A stretch of DNA of 64,000 bases from Selaginella moellendorffii (taxonomy: Eukaryota > Plantae > Lycopodiophyta), in NCBI RefSeq assembly GCF_000143415.4, contig NW_003314277.1, positions 1,516,493 to 1,580,492 of the forward strand, read 5' to 3'. Of the stretch, positions 2,853 to 43,990 are shown one piece after another; position 1 is the first letter of the stretch, and every line of letters starts with the position of its first letter. The position numbers and the translations under genes are program-made. Below the pieces are notes generated by a model. It was not told the DNA's origin and searched no databases. It saw only the letters and a program-made list of their open reading frames with translations.

Positions 2853-5800
2853 TGGAGGAACCTTACACGAATAAGTTAGTGACCCCTTCATCTTTCTTTC
2901 GGGAGTATCATCAAGGGGTTCACTCGGCACCGGTTCATCAAGTGTTTACTTTCCAAGCTCGTTTTTATAACAAAAGGTCTCCTATTCTTCTCTCCGTGTT
3001 GGTTGATATAGGTTCGAGTTTATCTTCTATTGCTCGACCTGTTGCCACACGTTGTTGTCTACACTTGCGTCGTGCGGCGGATCCAGTTTTCATTCTTTAT
3101 GGCAACGGCCGTACACATGCATGTGCACGAGATGAGGCGAACCTGGTTGTGCGTGTGGGCGATCTTGAGCTTGAGTTGCAGTCGTTGCGGGTGGTGCCGA
3201 GTCAAGCTTTTGACCTCATTCTTGGTATGGATTGGTTGCAGCACAATCATGCCAAGTGTGACTTTGAGGCTTCTCCCCCTTGTCTCATACTTCATTATGT
3301 TTCATCCATTCCTCTCACTTCCATACCTCTTCGTCCCTCTACTTCTACCTCTGCTTCTATTACTTTTGTTCCCCCACTATTTCCTCTTGTGTTTCCATCT
3401 TGTTCTGCTCTTCCCTTTTCTGATCCCTCTGATGATCTTTGTGTTGTAGCTGTTGACCAGCTCATGAAAGGGTATTTGAATTTGACCTATCGTCTGGGGC
3501 CAAGATTGCCACATGTCATCCCATTCCAACCGGGGATGCTCGTCCAATCAACGTTCCTGTTCGTCGTCGGTCACCCAAGGAGATCAAGATTTTACATGCA
3601 AACGTCAAGGAGATGTTGGAGAAGGGTGTTATTCAGAAGTCGCGGAGTCCTTGGGCATGTGAACCTCATCTTGTGACGAAGCCTGATGGGAGTATTCGTT
3701 TCTGCATCGACTATCGTCCGTTAAATGCGGACGTGTACCCTCTTCCTCACACTGCTGATCTCTTGGATTGTCTGGGGCGAAGTCGTTGGTTCACCAAGCT
3801 TGATCTTGCTTCTAGGTATTGGCAAGTACTGATGGCCGAAGAAGATATTCCTAAGATTGCTTTTCGTACACCATTTGGTTTGTACGAGTTTTTGGTTATG
3901 CCGTTTGGTTTGAACAATGCTCCAGCAACTTTTCAGGGGATGATGGACGAGGTTCTTTGCGATATGCCGGAGGTGACGGCTGACTTCATTGATGATGTCT
4001 TGATCCACTCGGAGGGGATGTGGGAGGAGCACATTCGTGATGTTTGTAAAGTGTTGGATCGGCTACGCGACGTTGGTTTAAAGTTGAAGCAGTCAAAGTG
4101 CGTGTTTGGGTCCAAGAACACAACTTATCTTGGGTACCGTATTTCTCGTAAGGGTTTGCAAGTTGATCCTGACAAACTTGTGGCTGTTCTAAAGTTCCCT
4201 ACTCCGAAGTGTGTGAATGATGTGAAGCGCTTTTTGGGTAAGGTGCAATATCTTGGTTGTTTTGTGGATCATCTTTCTGATCGCACTACACCATTGCGAG
4301 CGTTGCTGAAGTCATCAACGTCATCTTTCATCTGGTCTCCCGATTGTGAGCGGGCGTTTGTGAATCTCAAAGAGCTATTGACGACTCCTCCGGTTTTGGC
4401 ATATCCTGACTACACTCGACCTTTTATTTTGCGCGTGGATGCTTCTGACATTGGTCTTGGAGGTGTGTTGATGCAAGAGAGCTCGAGTGTGCCTGGTCAG
4501 TGCCATCCCATTGCATATATAAGCCGTACATTACAACCAGCGGAGATGAACTACTCCACGACGGAGAAGGAGTGTTTAGTAGCAGTCTGGGGTTTCGAGA
4601 AACTTCATGCATATCTACATGGTTCTCGGACGTTACTTGAAGGTGACCATGCTGCTGTTACTTCATTATTGAAGCGGAAGAACCTAGTTGGTTGTACAGC
4701 TCGATGGGCTTTGAAGCTTCAGATATATGATTTCGATGTTGTTCATCACCCAGGGAGTTCTATGGCTGATGCTGATGCCCTTTCTCGAGCTCCTTTTCCT
4801 TCTCCACTCACTTCTCATGTTTCTGACGAACTTGTTGTTCCAGCATCTGTGGATTTTCTAGATGAGGATTTTGTGCCGTCGGCAGTTGCTGTCCTTGACG
4901 TTCAGTGTCCACAGAGCGCAGAGCAAGATCTACCTTCTCTTGATGAGGTTCGCGAGGCTCAAAAGATTGAGCTGTGGATTCGAAAGCTTCGAGATGGGTT
5001 TGAGAATCCTGCATCACTTGCTGATGACTTGCCTTTCCGGCATTTACATTCTCAATATCACTTTGAAGATGGCCTTCTTTATTTTGTGGGGACGGATCCT
5101 GATGATCATTTATGGCTGGTGGTGGCTTCGGTGTTTATTCCGCGGTTTTTCCATGCCTACCATGATTCTCCTATTCTAGGTGGGCATATGGGACACCGTT
5201 GTGTCACCGAGAAGCTGCGTAGATCTTTCTATTGGCCAAAGATGTGACATGATATTATCCGGTATGTGCGTAACTGCGTTTGGTGCCAAACTTGTAATAC
5301 TCCCCCTTGTGCTGCGGAAGGACGGTTGGAGTCAATTGCAGTTTCTCGTCCGTTTGAGTTGGTGGCGTTTGATCTTATGGGACCTTTTCCACGATCGACT
5401 GCTGGCAATGAGTATGTTATTATTGCTTCTGACTATTTGACTCGTTGGGTGGAAGTTGGTGCTTTTGCTAGTGCCTCTGCAACTGTTGTTGGATACTTCC
5501 TCCTCAATCGAGTGGTGTTCCAGCATTCTTGTCCAGAGCGGATTCTTTCGGATAATGGTCCTGCATTTATGGCTGAGGTATTTCATGTTTTGACATCTCG
5601 GTTGGGGATACGCCACACTTTTACGAGTGCTTATCATCCACAATCAGACGGTCTGGTGGAACGGCTTGTTCGGAAATTTAAAGGGATGATTGCGAAGTAT
5701 GTGAACTTTCAGTATTCGGATTGGGATGGTTATTTGTTGTCTCTTCGGTATGCCTATGTCACAGGGGTGCAGAGTTCTGTTGGTGCTTCACTATATAAAC

Positions 5801-11785: not shown

Positions 11786-14700
11786 TCAATACCTGATAGT
11801 TTTGAACATTGAAGAACGCGTCTCGTCCGTTGCTGAAAGCATATGTGGGGCAGAACGGTAGTGCTTGTATTTGTCCAGCTTGAGTTCTCTCTGAATCAGT
11901 AACAGTAGACGCTTGTGAGTGCTTTGCTTCTTCGAAAGTACTTTGTGAAACGCTGCCCAGCCTAGCCACTCCATTTCTTTTGCTCGGCTCAATACTTTCC
12001 CAGATCCCACGGCTTGCATTCTTTGCCGAATCAATCGAAAGGTATACCTGGAAAAAGACTCGGTCACTGTTATCTTCAGGAATACAACTCACCTCGTCGT
12101 TCTTCGAATTGCCTGGAAAAGGAATAGTGGATTATTGACGTTGAATGGCCGTAAGCACTTCAAATACGCATGAAACTTCATCGCACAAAGAAGAAACGCT
12201 TGGTATGCGTTCAAGGATATCGTTGATGCTGAGTTGATCTCGGAGTCGTAAAATACCGGATGACATTTCGGCCTCATGAAATGAAACATCTTCACAACCA
12301 GATTTAGTCCTTGTTTGTGGCACCTCATGACCGTCAGACTAGATCTGATGTGTTCGCCGCAGTATCTGTAAAAACATGTCAGAACATACAAGAAACGTGA
12401 TCGCTTTCAAACGAACCTCGTATAGTCGGCTTGGATTTCAAGAGTGTGACAGTTGATGAGCAAACCACTCCATCGCATGAAACAAGCCCCATCTTCAGTC
12501 GAATACATGGACTTCACGTTCTTCCCACTAATGTCAGTATCAAAGCTTGTAGATGTTTTGTCCTCGTTGACACAGCATCCGAACTGTTCGAGGTCCCTGT
12601 GCATTACGTTCAAGAAAAGTGTTGCCTTTGCTTCAGACGTAGATATAAATAAGGAGTCGTCCACCAGCCGCATAAGAAGAGCCTCGTCTGTGGTCTCTTC
12701 CTTCACCAGGCCGTCCTGAGGTTTCCCTTGTAAAGCTGGTAGTATGTGGCGCAAGTCCAGGTAACCATAGTATAACGCGCATAGGAAAGACGAAAGTACG
12801 CTGCCTTGAGGAATACCGGTAAATTGTTGAAAGAAGTTGTGGCCGAGGTGCAAGATATTGGATTTTATGTGTTCTTTGAGAACTCTCAATAGCTGCACTC
12901 TTGACACATTAGAGTGATAGGCCTGTGGTAACGATTTGTTAGTAATACAACGCCCTGTAATAACCAAAGAACAAACCTGATCAGTAAATATTGTTTCGGA
13001 GCGCTTAGTTGTCAAGTTTCGAACAAAGTTGTAGACCCTCCCATCACTCCCCGCAGTAGCACAGGCTTTCTCGTGAAGCACTCGGACAGATGCCAGCCTG
13101 CTACGGACGGAAGTAAACCGCAAAACAACGTACTTCTCCTCGTGCAAGAACTTGTCAACAATGCTGTAAAGCCGTTCCTGATCGATAGTGTCGAACGCAT
13201 TAGCGACGTCACAAACAGCCAGAAAAATTTTCGTTGGTTCTCGTTGTCTGAAACGTCGGATGAAAGGAAGCAGCTTCAAGTAGATGTCGTTGTAGCCGAA
13301 TACAGACGCGCCAAGATCACCTTGATGACTTTCTTGCTCAAGCTTCAGACACTGATGAGCATCCCCGAGAGCAGAATTGACGGACTTGAACGAATAAACT
13401 GTCTGAATTTTCCCATCACCCCTGGAACCGGAACTTAGATCGGATGATCTCCTTCGATGGCTGACATGAACAACCCGTTTTCCTTTCCTGGACTTCGGAA
13501 AGGTGGAGTCTTTACGCTTGACCACGTAGATTGATGCCGAGCCGAGATTAGCTATTGGTCTGACGCTCGTTTTTTTCGGAAGAAGCCGGACTTTAGAGAA
13601 TCCCAGTGCTCGGTTCCTGAGGGCTTTGTCAGCGTCCACACGTTTGTAGACAGTCTTTGATAGATCACGAACAGCCGCAGACTGAATCTGCGACCATATA
13701 GGCTTCCGGTAAAACACCACATTTTGCCGTTGATTCTCGCTCTCTGTAACGTAGAAGTGAACACGTATCAGAGGAACCAATACGTTTGTAAAAATCCAGT
13801 ATAGCCAGTCTTCTACCATTTGACTTCTGAAATATCCAACTCCTTCGAGTTCCTTGATTGTATCCCGCTTGCTCAGAAAAGTAAAGTCGGAAACCTTAAG
13901 CTTCTGCAACAGCTGAACCGAGGAAAATGCTTCGTACCTCCGAAGTCCAACAAAGCGTGCATACTGCTTTCGAAGAGCTCTCCAGTTTTTGGGAGACCCG
14001 AGCATTTCCTGGGGTATGAGCCTCCTGGAAGCAGCCCACAAGAATGCCACAACTTGATGGTTGGTCGAGGTCATGGCCAGCAGCTCTGATAAAGGCCTCT
14101 CATTTTTTGGTTTGGTGCTACCTTTCCTTGGATCAGGCACTGACTTGCATGAACATGAAGAATCTCCACGAGATTCCTCTTGAGTAACATATCCATCATT
14201 CAGAAACATATCTTTAAAGTAAAGATTGCCATCGATTTCCTGCACGCTTATCCTCAGAACATACGAAATATTCTGGCAGCAATACCTTCCGTGGCAAAAT
14301 TGGCACAGGACAGTGCCGTTTCAAAAGATGGCCACACTGAAACTTTTTAGCGCGACAGATTAGTCTCTTCAGAAGCCGCAAAATAGAAGGTGGGTAGCTG
14401 TGAAAGATATTTTCAGAAACTTAACGCACAAAGCTCATCGACAAGTACCTCTTTTCGGTTGTTTTGCTTCCAAATATTGACTCGAACAACCACGCAGCTC
14501 CCCCGTCCTTACTAGCTGCTGATGTAAAAAGAATATCTGCCTTGGTCAAGGATTTACCAGAAACAAATTCAAATTACTAAAGGATACGAGTTTTTGGCAG
14601 TCCCCCCTTCCTGTTAAAACAAGTGCTATAAAACATCTGTGCACGATCAATCTGTCTATGACAGGCTGCAGGCACACTTTCCAAGCGCTCCACCACCTGA

Positions 14701-19082: not shown

Positions 19083-20771
19083 ACAAGTTCGTGGAGAAGC
19101 TCCAATTTTGTGTTAGTGCAATGGAGGTAATGGACGTAGAGCCTGATGACGTGAACCTTGCTTTGTAGATTCACCACGGTAAACAAGTTTGTATATGACG
19201 GTAGGATATGATTTTCTTCTCGAGAGACTTTAGAACATTCTGCAGATAAGCTAATTATAAGGGTAATGTGACAATTTCCAAGATGATTACATGATAAAGA
19301 CCTTTTTAACAAGTAAAAACATAGTCCCACTTAAGGTTTTTCAATTTGGAGAGGGCCGCACGTACGCGAGCCCTCAACTTCCACAAATTACAACGTCCAC
19401 TCCTCCACTTTGGGAAGATGGTAGGCCGGCCAAGCCGAAGTGCAATGGGAAGGCTGAACCTAGGCCATTGGCTTTTACGATCACCAATAGACCCCGTCCA
19501 GGTAAGTCCCTATTAAACACACTAATAAATGGAAGTATTGAACAAATAAATTATATGGTTACACAACACCGATCATGGTTTGCCATTTAAAAATAAAATA
19601 TTATATTAACAGCACTAACCAATTTGTCATTTTGGGGAAGAAGCAATACCAATAGGCTGTGTTTATAACATTAGAGGCCTCCTCATAATATTGAAGTTAC
19701 ATTGAATGAGAAAAACATAAGAAGAGCTCGTGAAGCATCACTATGAAAAATCTTTGTGGATTTCTCAGTTATAGTTGTGTATAAATCTAAATCAATAGCA
19801 ATAGGAGGTTACTACAACAAAGCCCAACAAGAAATTGTGAGTGACTGCTAAGGATAAAAAAAGCTGGTAGCAAAACAAGGCTGCGATCAAAAGTCATCTA
19901 AATTATATTGAAATGCTCTTTTTACATGAATGATTTTCCTCAAGGAACAGGTTGAGACAGAATACCTTTAAAAAGTATCTCGTGGAGAAGTATGGCTACT
20001 ACTTTTAAGAGAATTCTCTGTTTAGTTTAAACCACTCAAGCAATAATTGCAAGATAGATTATTTCAAACTCTAAATTTTATCTTCTTCATCCTCATCCTC
20101 TTCATTGTCTTGTTCTGGTAGCTAGAGTGGTCCCAAAACAAACTCAAAATCTCTAAGAGCCTTCAAAGGAGCCAATTTAACCACTAATAATTTTTTGGAA
20201 CTCATTCATGGGATTATTTCATATTAAGAACAGAATTAAGGTAAAGCTAGGAGTCTAAACAATTTTCCCTGTTTGAATTACAAGAATCTTTGGTTAGGGA
20301 TAAGTCTTCAAAGGCCCTTTATATTTTATTGTTAAAAGAGCAAATGTTAAAATGATAAACATTATATTCAAATCTATTAGACACTCTTAATTAAATCAAT
20401 ATAAGACAATAATACAACCATAGAATAATAATAGCAATTTTAATATTAATAACAATAATAATAACCACTCTGCTTACTTTAAGAATATTCTCCATGTATA
20501 AGAGCTAATCAGAAAACCACAAATTCATATATAGTTATATAATACAACGCATCTTTATTAAGGATCTTTAGGATATTCTGTATCATGTGACTTTTATAAA
20601 TATACATTTTATAACGTCAAAACACTTTTTTAGATATTGTTTAGTACACATCTATGTTATTACCATCTCAATCTTTTCTATAAAGAGATTAGTAAAATAT
20701 CAAGTTTAACATAACAGAATTATTATTAAAGTGATTAAAAAATAATTTCTTATAAATTATATAATAAACAT

Positions 20772-21671: not shown

Positions 21672-22360
21672 TTAAAAGTTAATAGAATTCCTTAAAGAGG
21701 TAAAATAAAATTTTGATCTTAATTTTGTATCATCCTTAATAAACTTAGGACTTTTATACTATAATATAGAAATATCAGTATACTATTATTTGTTATTTCT
21801 TAAAGTAGTACTTAACTTTTTCTTGAAGATATTATTTGTAATATAATAGTATATATATCACATATGGCAGTCATCAAAGAAAAAATCCAACAAGCATAAT
21901 ATGTTTATGTCATAAACCTTAGTAGGATAACTTATGAGGGAGTGCTCACATTAAACAAGCAATAAATAACCTAATAAATAATATACTTAACATGTGGCAA
22001 GTTTCATAATACAATAATTAAGTTTGATATGTATGTATATTTGTTATATGTTGCATGCAACAATGTTTGGTTTGTTTAATAGGTATTATTCTAATTCAAT
22101 TCATCAATTGAAAGTTTATAAACACATTATTAAGGTAGAATAAGATGTTTAGATAAATTATATATATATTGTTTAATAAAATATCCTAGAATATTAAAGC
22201 ATTATTAGAGGGTTTTTTTGAGGTTTTCGACCTCCACCCAAATTATCTTATTCTGAGTGGAGAGATGTTTGGATGTCAGGCCTCCTACACTAAACTGAAA
22301 TAGTTCATATATTATCCAGGTCACTGCAATCCATTTTTAGATCCATGACAATTTTGAGAC

Positions 22361-24400
22361 ATGGATTGTGTGTATGCCATACAATCTTGCAAAAGCCTTT
22401 CCATTGCAATAACTATACACTCCCAAGTTTGTCAGCGCTACAAAGAAAATTTGGACGTGTTTGTGATAAACAAGCTCATCCAAATGTATGCACGATGCGG
22501 CAGCACAATGCACGCACGAAGAGTTTTCGATTCCATGGACCCTCCAGTCAGAGATTCCATGACGTGGGATCTCATGCTCTTGGCATATACCCGAAACGGG
22601 TATCTTCTGGAAGCTAAGCAGTTTTTTAGCCAGATGCCTCAGCACAGCGTCGTTTGCTGGACAGCCCTTTTCATTGCTTATGCCCACAATGGGAATCTCA
22701 AGGAGTCTAAGGTAATATTTGATGCGATTCCAGAACCGGATCTCGTTGCTTGGACATCAATGCTCGTGGTATATGCCCAAAACGGGTATCTCTTAAAGGC
22801 AAGAAAAATATTCGGAAGGATGCCACAGAGGGACCTTGTATCCTGGACAGCCATGCTTTCTGCATATGCTCGAAATGGCAACTTAAGGGAATCTAAGCTC
22901 ATCTTTGACGACATTCCAGAACTGGACCTCCCGTCATGGAATGCGATGCTATCAGCTTATTCCCAAAACGGGCATTTGGAAGATGCCAAGCGCATCTTTC
23001 ACATGATGCCTGCAACGAATCTAAGCTCCTGCAATGCAATCTTGTCAGCATATTCCCAAGAAGGAGACGTCCCCAACGCAAAGAGGTGTTTTGACAAGAT
23101 GCCGCAGCATTGCATGGTATCGTGGAATGCTATGCTTGCGGCATATGCCCGGGCAGGGCATCTCGAAGATGCGAGGATATTCTTTGCCACCTTTCATGAG
23201 ACCGATCTTGTGTCTCGCAACACCATGCTCGTGGCATTTTCCCAGGCAGGTAATATCCAGGAAGCAACGCGCATCTTCAACGACATGCCCTTCTGGGATT
23301 CGGTATCTTGGAGCAGTATGCTCTTCGCATATGCCCTCAACGGGCATCTGGACAACGCAAAGGAGATGTACGACCGAGTGCCGTACAGGGACGTAGTGCT
23401 GGACAACTCGATGCTTAGTGCGCTCGCGCAGAGGGGCGACATGGCCGGGGCTAGGCGAATATTCAAGAGCATGCAGTACCACAACCTCCTGTCGTACAAC
23501 GCGATGCTGTGTTTGCTGCCCGTGGACGAGGCCCGCACAATGTTTGACCGCCTGGCCCGCCGCAACCAGGTGACGTGGAACGTCATGCTCAATGTGTACG
23601 GCCAGGCCGGGCGGGTGGAAGATGCGAAGATTCTCATGGACGAGATGCCGCAGCACAGCCTCGTGACGTGGAATTCGATGCTCACGGCATATGCCGTGAC
23701 CGGGCATCTGGAATACGCCAAGTGCGTGTTTGAGAATATGCCGCATAGGGATCTTATATCCAGGAACGTCTTGCTCAGCGCGTTTTGCCACTGCGGCGAG
23801 TTCGCGAGCGCGAAGGCGAGCTTCGATCTCATGGAGGAGAGGAATCTCAAGTCCTGGAACACGATTCTCGCGGCAAGCGCCTTCCACGGGCAACGCGAGA
23901 AGGTAGTCTCCCTGTTCCAGCGGATGCCGGAGCGAGATCTCGTCTCCTGGAGCACTTTCATCGCGGCGCTGGCTCGAAATCTCGATGCCGCTGGCGCGTT
24001 CCAGGGATTCCACACGCTGATGCTCACGGAGGAGCCCGACGACAGCAGCTTTGCCCTGTTCTTGGTGGCGTGCAGCCATGGTGGCAGCGTCGAGGCAGGG
24101 AAATCGTGCTTCCACTCGATGGAGAGGGATTTCGGGCAGAATCCCACACGGCAGCATTACAGCTCCATGGTAGATCTGCTAGCGCGGGCCGGATCAGTCG
24201 CGGACGCCACAAATCTCCTGAGCAGCATGCCATTCGAGCCGGATGGCCTGGAATTTCGATCCCTGCTTGGAGCTTGCGGCCGGGACAGAGATCTCGAGCA
24301 GGGAGGCGTCGCGGCAAAGGGTGCTGTGGATCTGGATTCCACATCGCTGCTATTGCTCTCCAATCTCTACGCCCCCGGAGCTTCTTCTTCCCGCCTATAA
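22361..24400 (+). CDS. PLS-class PPR protein (S-motif rich) with E domain
   Basis: Tandem approximately 31-aa DLVSWTAMLSAYARNG repeats, HYSSMVDLLARAG, LLGAC. Confidence 0.92.
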   Translation: MDCVYAIQSCKSLSIAITIHSQVCQRYKENLDVFVINKLIQMYARCGSTMHARRVFDSMDPPVRDSMTWDLMLLAYTRNGYLLEAKQFFSQMPQHSVVCWTALFIAYAHNGNLKESKVIFDAIPEPDLVAWTSMLVVYAQNGYLLKARKIFGRMPQRDLVSWTAMLSAYARNGNLRESKLIFDDIPELDLPSWNAMLSAYSQNGHLEDAKRIFHMMPATNLSSCNAILSAYSQEGDVPNAKRCFDKMPQHCMVSWNAMLAAYARAGHLEDARIFFATFHETDLVSRNTMLVAFSQAGNIQEATRIFNDMPFWDSVSWSSMLFAYALNGHLDNAKEMYDRVPYRDVVLDNSMLSALAQRGDMAGARRIFKSMQYHNLLSYNAMLCLLPVDEARTMFDRLARRNQVTWNVMLNVYGQAGRVEDAKILMDEMPQHSLVTWNSMLTAYAVTGHLEYAKCVFENMPHRDLISRNVLLSAFCHCGEFASAKASFDLMEERNLKSWNTILAASAFHGQREKVVSLFQRMPERDLVSWSTFIAALARNLDAAGAFQGFHTLMLTEEPDDSSFALFLVACSHGGSVEAGKSCFHSMERDFGQNPTRQHYSSMVDLLARAGSVADATNLLSSMPFEPDGLEFRSLLGACGRDRDLEQGGVAAKGAVDLDSTSLLLLSNLYAPGASSSRL

Positions 24401-24443: not shown

Positions 24444-25305
24444 ATGGAGGGCTTTGCGGTGGCGATGGATCTCTTGGAGAAGATGGGCAGCAGCGCGCGG
24501 CACTGCAGGGAGGTGTACCAGAAGCTCCACAACGACGATGCCGCCGTGATCCAGCGAGTTGAAGCGATGCTCAGCGAAGCTGGGGCTGCCGTGGAGGAGG
24601 ATCGCGAGCGAATGACTGGGTTGCTCCAAGGTATGACTCTTTTTTGTCTTCTCTCTTTCTTTGCTCAAAGCTTTGTTGGCTAGATTTGAAGCAGGAAGTC
24701 GACGCGACCGATAAGATGATGGCTCGTTTGAAGAATGCGGGAGTGAATGACGCAGAACTGGAAGCTCTGACCATTACGCTCAAACAAATCAGAGACCATG
24801 AGCAGGATTTGGAGGAAGAAACCAGATAAGTGTCATGTGATTTCACTCTCGAAATTTTTGTATGTTTGTTCTTCGCATTCTTGACACTAGTTCTTGATTT
24901 TTCCACAGTTCTAAAAGACGAAGTGAACAGGATCGAAACTCGTTTCAACTCCCTGGAGGCCAAGAAGGAAGAACTTAAAAAGCTCGAAGCGCTCCAGCAG
25001 CACAACACGTGATGATAGCACCATTTTTTTTTTTCTCACTCTCTTCGTTTTGCTTCCAGTCACGAGCTCTCTTTGTTTGCACAAGTCACTAGGATCGTCC
25101 CGGACACCGAGTCTATTGGGAGCTCTATACTTACAGGCAGTAAGCACATCTCTAGAGATTAGTATCTCTCGAAAGCCTTGACGTGTTTTCTCCTTTCCTA
25201 GGCATCTTGGACGAGCAAAAGCGACTAAGGAGCGAATTCAAGCTCGACACCACGGAGAAATCTGAGTTTGAGACATGCCGAGCTCTCTGGCGCATGGAAG
25301 TCTAG
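24444..25305 (+). CDS. SPC24: Kinetochore protein SPC24-like (5 exons)
   Basis: Coiled-coil N-terminus. C-terminal ELSLFAQVTRIVPD...FKLDTTEKSEFETCRALW matches the Spc24 RWD-like tail pattern. Confidence 0.75.
24826..24906 (+). other. AT-AC intron, 81 nt
   Basis: ACCAG|ATAAGT...TTTTCCAC|AGTTCTA gives EETRVLKDE and removes an in-frame TAA. Confidence 0.7.
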
Positions 25306-25460
25306 TCTGAGCGAGAGTTTGCAAGTAAGCTTTGTTCCCTTTGGATTATTGATTACAGCTAATTTGAGATCGATAATGTAGGGACGGTACAAACTCTGAA
25401 AGAACCATTTGCTTCTTCGAGCAGCAAAAATGTTGATAGAAGGTTTTTTTTTTCTTTCTT

Positions 25461-41044: not shown

Positions 41045-43990
41045 CGTTGGATCATCTTCCAGCTAATCCCACTTGGTAGCCTGAGGTTCTTGGTGTTCAG
41101 CCACACCTTCTCCCCAGCTTGGAACTCTACGTCCCGGCGCTTCTAGTTCGCGTACTTGGTTTGCCTTTGTTGAGCCCGTTCCAAGGAATCCCTCACTAGA
41201 TTCCAAATGTTGAGTCTTTCCGCCGTGAATGCCTCCACTGCGGGTAACTCTCCATGATACTCGGCCACGCTGAGTTCCACAGTACCTTCAATAGCTCACC
41301 CATTGATGACTTCCCATGGACTCACCCCGATGCTCGAATGTGGTGAGTTGTTATAACACATTTCCGCAAGTCCCAAATGACTTACCCAATCGGTCTGGTC
41401 TCCTGAGACATAGCATCGCAAATAATCATCCAGCTTCCTATTCACCCTTTCCGTTTGTCCGTCTATCAAGAAGTGTTAGTGCCATCAACTTGACTTAATA
41501 CCCCATACCTGTCTGTGGGTGATAGGCTGTGCTGAATTTCAACTTGGTGCGATACTGTTTCAGGAGGGTTCTCCAGAACTTACTAATAAAGATTTTATCT
41601 CGATCTAAGATAATCTCCTCTGGCCTTCCCCGCACTCGAACCACTTGTTTGAAGAACAGCTTCGCCACACCTTCCGCATCCACTTCCGTTGTGGTGGGTA
41701 TGAAATGTGCCATCCTCGAAAATCAATCCACCACCATGAATATCGCATCGAACCCCTCGCTTGGGGGTAGTCCCATGATGAAGTCCATCGTAAGACATTT
41801 CCACGGACAGTCTGGAATTGGGATGCTTTGCAACAAACCCCCACTAGCCTTAGTCACGGCTTTGACCTGCTGACATATTAGACATGTCTTTACATAGTCT
41901 TGGACGTCCTTAGCCATATCTGGCCAATGGTACTTCCTCTTGAGTAAGCCCATCGTCTTGGGCACTCCGCCGTGTCCCGCAAGACGTCTGTCATGACACT
42001 TTTCTAAGGCTACCTTCCTTAGTCCCCCTTCTGGAACATACACCCTCGTTTGCTTGTAATAGATGAGTCCATTGTGTTTCGCATAGCCTGTTTTCTCTTC
42101 CATTGGCAGCTCACCTCTCTGGTGAGCTTCCCTTGCCTCTAGATTCCTCAGCAACACTTCTTGTGCTAGACCATCGTTCTCATATGCAGTCCGCACATCG
42201 TCCCAGAAGGTTGCTGTTGCGCTGGATATCGCCAACCTCAAGCTCGCTTTTCGACTTAGCGCATCCTCCACGATGTTGCTCTTCCCAGGCTTGTACAAAA
42301 TCTCGCAATCAAACTCGGCCAAGGCATTGACCCACCGACCTTGTTTCCCTCTCAGATCGGGCTGTGACAAGAAGTGTTTCGTTGCCACATTGTCTGTGTA
42401 AACCTTGAAGTGTCTCCCAAGGTAGTGTCGCCACTCTTTGAGCGCCTTGACCACCGCAAACAATTCCTTCTCGTGGGCAGGCCACTTCTGTTGAGCCTTG
42501 TCCAACTTCTTCGAGAAGAACGCTACTGGATGGTTGTCTTGCTTCAAAACCGCGCCCAACGCAAAGTCCGAAGCATCCGTTTCTACCTCAAAGTCCTTAC
42601 CAAAGTCTGGTAATGCTAACACGGGAGCCTTCATCAACTTCCCTTTGAGGTGGACGAATGCCGCCTCGCATTTCGCTGTCCATACCATCTTCCCTTTTTC
42701 GGTTTGGTCCGTTAAGGGCAGGGCTACTCTCGAATAGTGTCTGATAAACTTTCGATAGTAGTTGCATAGCCCCAAGAATGCCCTCAACTCATGTACATTC
42801 GATGGTCGCTCCCATTCCTGGATTGCTTGGACCTTCTCCAGGTCCACCTTGAGCCCATCCTAGCCCACCACATGCCCGAGAAACTTTACCTCTTGTTGAG
42901 CAAAGTCACATTTGCTCTCTTTAGCATACAATTTGTGTTCCCTTAGTTTCTCAAACACTTTCGCCAAGTGTTCGGCATGCTCCTCTAACGTCTCGCCATA
43001 GATCAGGATGTCGTCGATATAGACGACCACAAAGTGATCTAGATAGGGTACAAAGATGTGGTTCATCAGCGCTGAAAATGTTGCCGGCACATTGCATAGC
43101 CCAAAGGGCATCACCAGAAACTCAAAGCTCCCATACCTCGTTCGACAGGTTGTCTTCTCGACATCTTCCTCGGCTACCCTGATCTGGTAGTATCCTGACC
43201 TTAGGTCAATCCTCGATAAGTATTTTGCCTTTCCCAACCTATCGAACAGGTCCTCAAATCTTGGCAAAGGGTACTTGTTCTTCTTTGTATACTTGTTGAG
43301 CAACCGGTTGTCTAAACACATGCGCATAGAACCATCTTTCTTTTTCACAAATAACACCAGCGCCCCATACGGCGACTTGCTCAACCTAACATAGCCTTTG
43401 TCCACCAACTCCTCTAGATGGCACTTGAGCTCCTTGAGTTCTTTTTCGTTCAAACGATAGGGGGGACGAACCACCGCCTCAACACCCTCGACCAGCTCAA
43501 TCTTATGTTCTATCGGTCGTGCGGGGGGCAACCCCGCTGGTAGCTCCTCCGGCATGGTATCCTGGAATTGGTCCAACACCCGCTGGATCGCTAAAGGTAC
43601 TTCTTCCATTCCTGTCTTTTTGTCACTCTTCACCGAGAGTAAGCACAAAAAGGCTGCCTTAGTTCCTTTAGTGAGTTGTCCTCTCGTGGACACCAGGTTT
43701 AAGCAGGAATCTTTGGCCTTGCTTTGCCCTACCTTTAGATCCTGGGCTTCCACCCTAGATCTTCTTCCTTGGGCATTCGCCAGTACCACAAGGTTCCTAC
43801 CTTGTCCATGCAGGGCTACCACGAACCGATTGAACCAATCCATTCCGAAGATCACGTCAAATCCCGCCATATCCAACACAGTGAAATCCATGTCTACTTT
43901 CCATGTCCCTACTTCGACTCTCGCTTGTCGAAGTACCTCATCGGTGCTTTGGCTACCTTGAACAAACTCCCCGATAGTTTCTTGGGCGAG
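41045..43990 (-). mobile_element. Truncated Ty3/gypsy pol fragment (PR C-terminus, RT, RNaseH, INT) with in-frame nonsense codons and a 46-nt intron
   Basis: [39 protein letters not shown]|DGQTER, KRRDVEFQAGEKVWL. Stops at 42860, 41723, 41296 and 41143. No LTRs seen. Confidence 0.92.
41463..41508 (-). other. Spliceosomal-type GT-AG intron within the integrase coding sequence
   Basis: CAG ACA G|GTATGG...CACTAAC..TTCTTGATAG|AC GGA CAA ACG GAA AGG. Removal restores HPQTDGQTER exactly. Confidence 0.85.

Follow-up and report, generated by a model that had tools for sequence, protein, structure and literature searches.

An AT-AC intron with a U2-like donor in the SPC24 gene of Selaginella moellendorffii and of eudicots, aligned with a human U12-type intron

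Results

The SPC24 gene and its surroundings

The window, that is the whole stretch of 64,000 nucleotides of Selaginella moellendorffii DNA that was analysed, carries on its forward strand a gene that an earlier note, made from the sequence alone, had named SPC24. The features to which the analysis refers are the following:

24444..24630, + strand: SPC24 coding exon 1, from the ATG of the RefSeq model P0001
24631..24683, + strand: SPC24 intron 1, GT-AG, phase 1, 53 nt; joint found in 4/4 and in 3/4 runs
24684..24825, + strand: SPC24 exon 2, 142 nt, 3' end CAG; absent from the JGI models P0002 and P0003
24826..24906, + strand: SPC24 intron 2, AT-AC, phase 2, 81 nt; splits the Arg110 codon; joint found in 7/8 runs
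24823..24833, + strand: 5' splice site CAG/ATAAGTGT of intron 2, complementary to U1 from -3 to +6 save at +1, with G at +5 and without the U12 CC at +5/+6
24878..24885, + strand: candidate branch site TTCTTGAC, with A at 24884, 22 nt from the 3' end; probably the preferred one for major splicing
24891..24898, + strand: second branch-like motif TTCTTGAT, with A at 24897, 9 nt from the 3' end; lacking in poplar
24898..24908, + strand: 3' splice site TTTTTCCAC/AG of intron 2; splicing is at the AC, and the AG two bases on is passed over
24907..25008, + strand: SPC24 exon 3, 102 nt; also 102 nt in 9/9 eudicot contigs, 105 nt in human
25009..25059, + strand: SPC24 intron 3, GT-AG, phase 2, 51 nt; retained forms and a second allele in contigs
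25060..25139, + strand: SPC24 exon 4, 80 nt; from contig joints and the reading frame
25140..25201, + strand: SPC24 intron 4, GT-AG, phase 1, U2-like donor GTAAGC; leftover CCTTGAC at 25176-25182
25202..25324, + strand: SPC24 exon 5; stop TAG at 25303-25305
25325..25381, + strand: SPC24 3' UTR intron, GT-AG, 57 nt; joint found in 4/4 runs
19349..19509, - strand: U1 snRNA gene, outside the SPC24 gene (Rfam RF00003, 118.6 bits)

When exon 1 was used as the query, P0001 (XP_024540363, 204 aa) and P0002, both from S. moellendorffii, were recovered. P0001 was identical to the joined frame of the window in length and junction and differed from it by a single D/N exchange elsewhere, a site at which the window has Asp, as does P0003. 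P0002 and P0003, which lie on different scaffolds, both skip exon 2. By itself P0001 fell under the Pfam cut-off for Spc24 (19.4 vs 25.3 bits), single exons gave nothing useful against Pfam, P0001 gave only coiled-coil noise against the PDB with phmmer, and a word search with alignment A1 yielded 6 proteins only. However, PF08286 (Spc24) was matched by 17 of the 19 aligned relatives, among which named plant SPC24 proteins occur, and the best PDB match of the plant profile was human Spc24 (8ppr_F). Through its relatives and the plant profile the protein is thus assigned a C-terminal Spc24 domain after a coiled coil, and the name given to the gene stands.

A frame of 680 codons coding for a PPR protein (22358-24400, + strand) ends 43 bases upstream of the SPC24 ATG at 24444, and single contigs span both. 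Farther away, an uninterrupted 637-codon frame at 12407-14320 (- strand), with telomerase RNA-binding and reverse-transcriptase domains, is part of TERT in one long exon, and retroelement frames with RT, RNase H and integrase zinc domains were found at 3457-5247 (+ strand) and 41723-42859 (- strand). Within SPC24, intron 3 was often retained in contigs (X1, X5, X6 and X19), which leads to immediate stop codons, and it occurs in a second allele that has five substitutions and two insertions relative to the window.

Intron 2 is joined at AT and AC

Intron 2 starts with ATAAGTGT after the exon end CAG and finishes with TTTTTCCAC before the exon start AGTT. In the unspliced reading an in-frame TAA (24827-24829) follows directly after the split Arg codon. 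The earlier note had proposed that AG/ATAAGT...CCAC/A joins the frames, and this was borne out: AT..AC joining gave an open frame of 204 aa with ETR/VLKDE at the junction, the same junction as in XP_024540363, so that the RefSeq model already has it. It had also stated that no GT donor precedes the TAA. With the intronic GT donors tried, all 36 combinations stopped at 110 aa; in exon 2, however, three GT dinucleotides do lie upstream, at 24698, 24726 and 24743; the 15 GT-AG pairings from these gave 67-176 aa and none of them was seen in contigs. Use of the acceptor AG two bases past the AC shifts the frame and gives 132 aa.

Contigs from eight of the 24 listed runs, which are only presumed to be RNA, were compared with the window. 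The joint 24825^24907, which the earlier note had put forward as a check, was present in contigs of seven of them, from seven studies, with a short side of at least 82 letters in six runs and of 27 letters only in X16; the contigs of the remaining run, X20, had no coverage of this joint. No other joint at intron 2 was listed in the contigs of the runs compared; a shift by one base (TA..CA) fits the sequence equally well. The interior of the intron was read by contigs of none of the eight runs, which should not be taken as evidence for efficient splicing.

The same intron in eudicots

A scan of metagenome contigs for SPC24 gave 18 loci. The count for intron 2 excluded nine of them: L001 is spliced, L010 has the 3' end of the intron only (it is AC), exons 1-3 were not found in L004-L008 and L012, and L018 is not from a plant and misses its 5' end. 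The other nine, all eudicot genomic contigs, contained the whole intron, and it was AT..AC and in phase 2 in 9/9, with six distinct sequences; these contigs represent three genes of two lineages and are not nine independent cases. The four poplar contigs, whose exons were 94-100% identical to P0010, have CAG/ATAAGTAC. The second eudicot, which from its protein sequence we take to be Arabidopsis or a close relative, contributed two contigs of one gene with TAG/ATAAGTAT and three contigs of a paralogue with TAG/ATACGT. AG/ATA.GT and AC/A were invariant in the alignment of the six sequences. The exons of L016 were matched at 100% identity by the spliced transcript L001, which joined at AT..AC. 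Scans of genome contigs and viral contigs revealed no plant or algal SPC24 DNA, and L019, whose 16 matching residues in a bacterial record are due to chance, was set aside. Poplar contigs L004, L006-L008 and L012 have exons 4 and 5 of SPC24 together with the U12-type intron 4 but no exons 1-3, and L008 has no match to exons 1-3 even in the 4.4 kb upstream; they are likely to be a partial SPC24 duplicate.

The strongest early rival to an AT-AC intron was an error of the assembly, or a dead allele, hiding a true GT-AG intron in Selaginella, because a GT-AG intron with two donor bases missing from the assembly and AG 24907-24908 as its acceptor would give the same mRNA; TTTTTCCACAG is a good ordinary acceptor, and base 24826 is read in the assembly only. 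Against this, identical AG/ATAAGT..AC/A borders in independent eudicot DNA are a strong argument; L016, to which transcript L001 belongs by its exons, has no AG after the AC. Moreover, exon 2 is missing from the JGI models of both haplotypes, which is what the lack of a GT there on both scaffolds would predict, and contig 1 of X1 corresponds to the window without any difference, the allele-specific intron 3 included, with the AT-AC intron 2 spliced out (the contigs are unphased). We consider an assembly error or dead allele extremely improbable. Contig joints and transcript L001 together show that the AT and AC ends are used in mRNA, and that SPC24 intron 2 is a real AT-AC intron is virtually certain. 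The idea that an AG just past the AC is needed for recognition was abandoned, because L013-L017 have none there.

The codon split by the intron was examined in 143 gap-free plant proteins (29 of 172 were gapped and set aside, and P0031 was excluded as unrelated). It was Arg in 137, Ser in three and Lys in none, and the other three proteins are models read in from the intron; poplars are over-represented in this set. Arg and Ser, found in 140/143, can both be coded by AGN. This pattern was dropped as a diagnostic because a control column, Arg120, likewise has no Lys. Models from four other genera (P0020, P0026, P0153 and P0172) were read in from the intron with Thr, which is what an AC intron end predicts. 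Ten models from unrelated eudicots lack the same eight residues at the end of exon 2, a shared loss that is likely to be a common mis-prediction around the AT-AC intron:

Models with the eight-residue deletion: P0056, P0128, P0138, P0144, P0146, P0148, P0151, P0155, P0157, P0173

Signals for the major and the minor spliceosome

The 5' start of U1 snRNA is usually AT. The U1 gene of the window has GG as its first modelled bases; it may be a variant copy, and its modelled 5' end may not be the true one. With this U1, the intron 2 donor forms 8/9 pairs at -3 to +6, position +1 being the lone miss. It is the best U1 pairing of the five donors of the gene (-6.1 kcal/mol), and this degree of pairing is reached by 5 of the 9600 AT sites in the window; the ATACGT donors of the paralogue pair poorly (-0.8 and -1.1 kcal/mol). 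Canonical U12 AT-AC introns have an ATATCC donor and a TCCTTAAC-type branch site. Among the ten donors compared, G was found at +5 in 10/10 and CC at +5/+6 in 0/10, and ATATCCT was matched at only 3-5 of 8 positions. The intron 2 donor follows the U2 consensus, G+5 included, everywhere save at +1. Similarly, all ten introns had a candidate YTRAY branch site whose A lies 19-30 nt ahead of the 3' end, and the pyrimidine fraction of the last 20 nt was 0.65-0.75; the 3' region of U2-type introns has a YTRAY about 20-40 nt upstream and a U-rich tract. The description of intron 2 as AT-AC with a U2-like donor was therefore confirmed.

The branch-like motifs noticed earlier near the 3' end do exist at 24878-24885 and 24891-24898, and they turned out to be weak as a relic of a U12 branch site, because they are not conserved and both contain an ordinary YTRAY. 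Each of TTCTTGAC and TTCTTGAT matches the U12 branch consensus at 7/9 positions, and the two look like a local duplication; in 5000 shuffles of the intron one 7/9 match arose in 14.9% and two in 0.7%. The best U12 branch match was 5/9 in poplar and 7/9, T-rich, in L016, with no CC in any.

Intron 4 served as an internal control. Among the 16 plant genomic loci examined, all 13 eudicot contigs with both ends of this intron had GTATCCT and TCCTTRAT, so that there is no general drift of U12 signals in those genes:

Eudicot U12 GT-AG intron 4 (GTATCCT, TCCTTRAT): L002-L004, L006-L010, L013-L017

The intron is U12 GT-AG in eudicots, whereas in Selaginella it has a GTAAGC donor and a leftover CCTTGAC. 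By these signals the Selaginella intron 4 is likely to be a second, ordinary U12-to-U2 conversion, which likely leaves Selaginella SPC24 without a minor intron.

For Selaginella, PMC11347168 (Tables S4 and S7) lists genes for U11, U12 and U6atac as well as 157 minor introns, and its CBP20 gene has a U12 AT-AC intron according to PMC5932401. Since the minor machinery is present, the assignment of intron 2 to one spliceosome is made from its sequence. The minor spliceosome might still act on it, wholly or partly, by recognising a degenerate donor and a branch site of U12-like sequence: the ends are AT-AC, the window has its two 7/9 U12-branch matches, one of them 9 nt from the 3' end, and in Selaginella U6atac ATGGA replaces AAGGA in the donor-pairing box (PMC2396436). 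Yet this variant motif, paired by hand with AGTGT at +4 to +8, gives one Watson-Crick and two wobble pairs; all ten donors have G+5 and none has CC at +5/+6, the poplar branch match is poor, and intron 4 of these eudicot genes still has its true U12 signals, all of which makes such hybrid splicing quite unlikely. With 8/9 U1 pairs and without a U12 signature, intron 2 is very probably spliced by the major (U1/U2) spliceosome.

A U12 AT-AC intron at the aligned position of human SPC24

The statement that mammalian SPC24 is a minor-intron gene was borne out for human. According to the supplements of PMC8280824, the human intron chr19:11148118-11149093 is U12 AT-AC and in phase 2, with the donor ATATCCTTT and the branch site GTCCTTAAC; it is flanked by Ala-Ser-Leu-Leu/Gln with a phase-2 split, and it is retained on loss of CENATAC and in ZRSR2 mutants. 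In a profile made from plant sequences only, the plant split Arg was aligned with the second human Leu (E 0.00023, in a coiled coil of about 20% identity). The human exons after this intron measure 105 and 77 bases in the same supplement, and by hand count human introns 3 and 4 agree with plant introns 3 and 4 both in the aligned codon and in phase. The length of exon 3 (102 vs 105 nt) fixes the position of intron 2 to within one codon. Exons 3 and 4 add up to 182 nt both in human and in Selaginella; this agreement was not used as evidence, as it is partly chance (poplar exon 4 is shorter). Another lineage thus has a U12 intron at the orthologous codon and in the same phase, as judged across a low-identity coiled coil. 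The last human SPC24 intron is classed as minor in Table S6 of PMC11347168 and as U2 in PMC8280824; a second U12 intron common to eudicots and human would make SPC24 an old minor-intron gene.

The human and plant introns belong to the same gene family and are alike in aligned codon, phase 2, AT-AC ends and the alignment of the next two introns. They differ in that the human one has ATATCCTTT, GTCCTTAAC and the exon end CCT, while the plant ones have ATAAGT or ATACGT, the exon end AG and no conserved U12 branch site. Because codon, phase and the two following introns are aligned, the sequences make it very likely that the plant and human introns come from one ancestor with AT-AC ends.

Discussion

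Probable conversion of a minor into a major intron with its ends kept

Conversion from U12 to U2 type with AT-AC ends retained, as the earlier note had proposed, is the best reading of intron 2, because a human U12 AT-AC intron lies at the aligned codon and phase. The same note had called the intron an intermediate, and this part has to be given up: poplar shows the same state, as do two paralogues of the second eudicot, which argues strongly against a fresh intermediate, and its sharing by a lycophyte and eudicots points to a stable end state. The comparison that the note had recommended across plants and animals thus found AT..AC in 9/9 eudicot contigs and a human U12 AT-AC intron at the site; the sequence of intron 2 was at hand from three lineages, Selaginella and two eudicot ones, and for human from the paper.

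The direction from minor to major at this intron is inferred from priors, none of the plant-side lineages compared having a U12 AT-AC form of it. In the literature, conversions are described as going nearly always from the minor to the major class (PMC10639083, PMC7367187). On the other hand, a major origin has been inferred for 15-20% of human minor introns (PMC11347168), and TAF2 offers an old AT-AC II intron common to human and fly (PMC1557818). The plant intron might never have been U12, an ancestral U2-type AT-AC intron having turned U12 in animals, or the two having separate origins; none of the ten plant donors shows a U12 form, and the split-codon Arg is also found in the chlorophyte proteins P0017, P0027 and P0046. 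We regard this as unlikely: apart from the prevailing direction of conversion, SPC24 has a second U12 intron common to eudicots and human, and separate AT-AC origins at one codon and phase would be improbable. Model P0047 has a deletion and a Thr before exon 3, and from the protein sequences there is some small chance that the AT-AC state is older than the green algal split. A fungus-like Spc24 piece (L018, 1-330), on a contig without the 5' end of the gene, has a 105-base exon 3 after an intron ending in AG, which suggests that the intron-2 position is also there with ordinary ends.

Our preferred explanation, which we think probable on the sequences compared, is that intron 2 of vascular-plant SPC24 is a major-spliced AT-AC intron descended from a minor (U12) AT-AC intron. 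U1 would pair from -3 to +6, with the full match elsewhere offsetting the A at +1. U6 takes over the donor at +4 to +6, and G+5 and T+6 of the intron 2 donor would suit it. U2 would bind the YTRAY branch site 22-26 nt upstream, likely at A24884 in Selaginella. In the second step the first-base A would pair with the last-base C in place of G with G, and such rescue of A by C, for which PMC1557818 cites U2 introns of yeast and human, would be the reason why splicing goes to the AC and not to the adjoining AG.

As for its history, the donor may have drifted from ATATCC to ATAAGT before the split of lycophytes and seed plants, which dates to about 400 million years ago, and the U12 branch site would have decayed. 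The AT-AC ends would have stayed because altering one end only would destroy the pairing and, in this gene, also put the frame out: a change of the donor only would favour the adjoining AG, with the frame shift to 132 aa, which fits the trap described in PMC2831892. A route from AT-AC U12 to AT-AC U2 has been proposed, without an orthologous example in the section concerned (Lin et al. 2010, PMC2831892, section 16). Whether intron 2 is the first orthologue-backed case of it, minor in animals, major in vascular plants and frozen for some 400 million years, we judge to be about an even matter.

Comparison with known introns

SPC24 intron 2 joins a known rare class, and its value lies in the orthologous pair and in a built-in test. 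AT-AC II introns are described in human SCN4A, SCN5A and other sodium channels and in TAF2 of human and Drosophila (PMC1557818), and in SYCP2 and TAF2 in a preprint on CENATAC (10.1101/2020.08.06.239418). Intron 2 resembles them in its AT-AC ends, U2-consensus donor, G+5 and long conservation; it differs in being native to plants and conserved in them, in having a U12 AT-AC counterpart at the aligned position and in that its U2 dependence is predicted from the sequence. For Arabidopsis, the relevant count in PMC1557818 was 0, and PMC7367187 gives 0.01% of U2-type AT-AC introns, with no genes named in the text available, so that a database may already list the intron without naming it. An artificial U2-type AT-AC intron of a GFP reporter in Arabidopsis (PMC5473141) is close in that the plant major spliceosome is reported to use AT-AC beside a competing AG; it is, however, alternative and used at 17.5% in the wild type, whereas SPC24 intron 2 is native and conserved and its joint is the only one seen.

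With the conversions of the Burge model (PMC2831892) intron 2 shares an orthologous site that is U12 in one lineage and U2-like in another, and Selaginella intron 4 would be the ordinary GT-AG case of that model. All 87 converted introns of the survey reported in PMC2831892 were GT-AG, whereas SPC24 intron 2 keeps AT-AC. Neither a plant SPC24 AT-AC intron nor an orthologous U12/U2 AT-AC pair was named in the literature searched, which comprised mostly open-access papers and preprints rather than intron databases such as IAOD, MIDB, ERISdb and introns.info, and the parts available of the supplements of PMC5716242, PMC7367187 and PMC10639083 held nothing on SPC24 intron 2.

Significance

This AT-AC intron breaks automatic annotation, as both JGI models and many plant models illustrate, in which exon 2 is skipped, eight residues are deleted or the intron is read in. 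SPC24 likely supplies an orthologous pair for the origin of major-class AT-AC introns, with an ordinary conversion, that of Selaginella intron 4, standing beside the AT-AC one in the same gene, and plants gain a native, conserved candidate of a class that was once counted as absent from Arabidopsis (PMC1557818). The drol1 mutation affects AT-AC introns only (10.1101/2020.10.19.345900) and ttl affects U12 introns of both kinds (10.1101/2025.02.25.639993), as far as the accessible text of these two preprints goes. If our reading is true, the eudicot SPC24 mRNA would combine a major AT-AC and a minor GT-AG intron, and eudicot SPC24 would be a natural test of whether DROL1 reads the intron ends or the class of the spliceosome.
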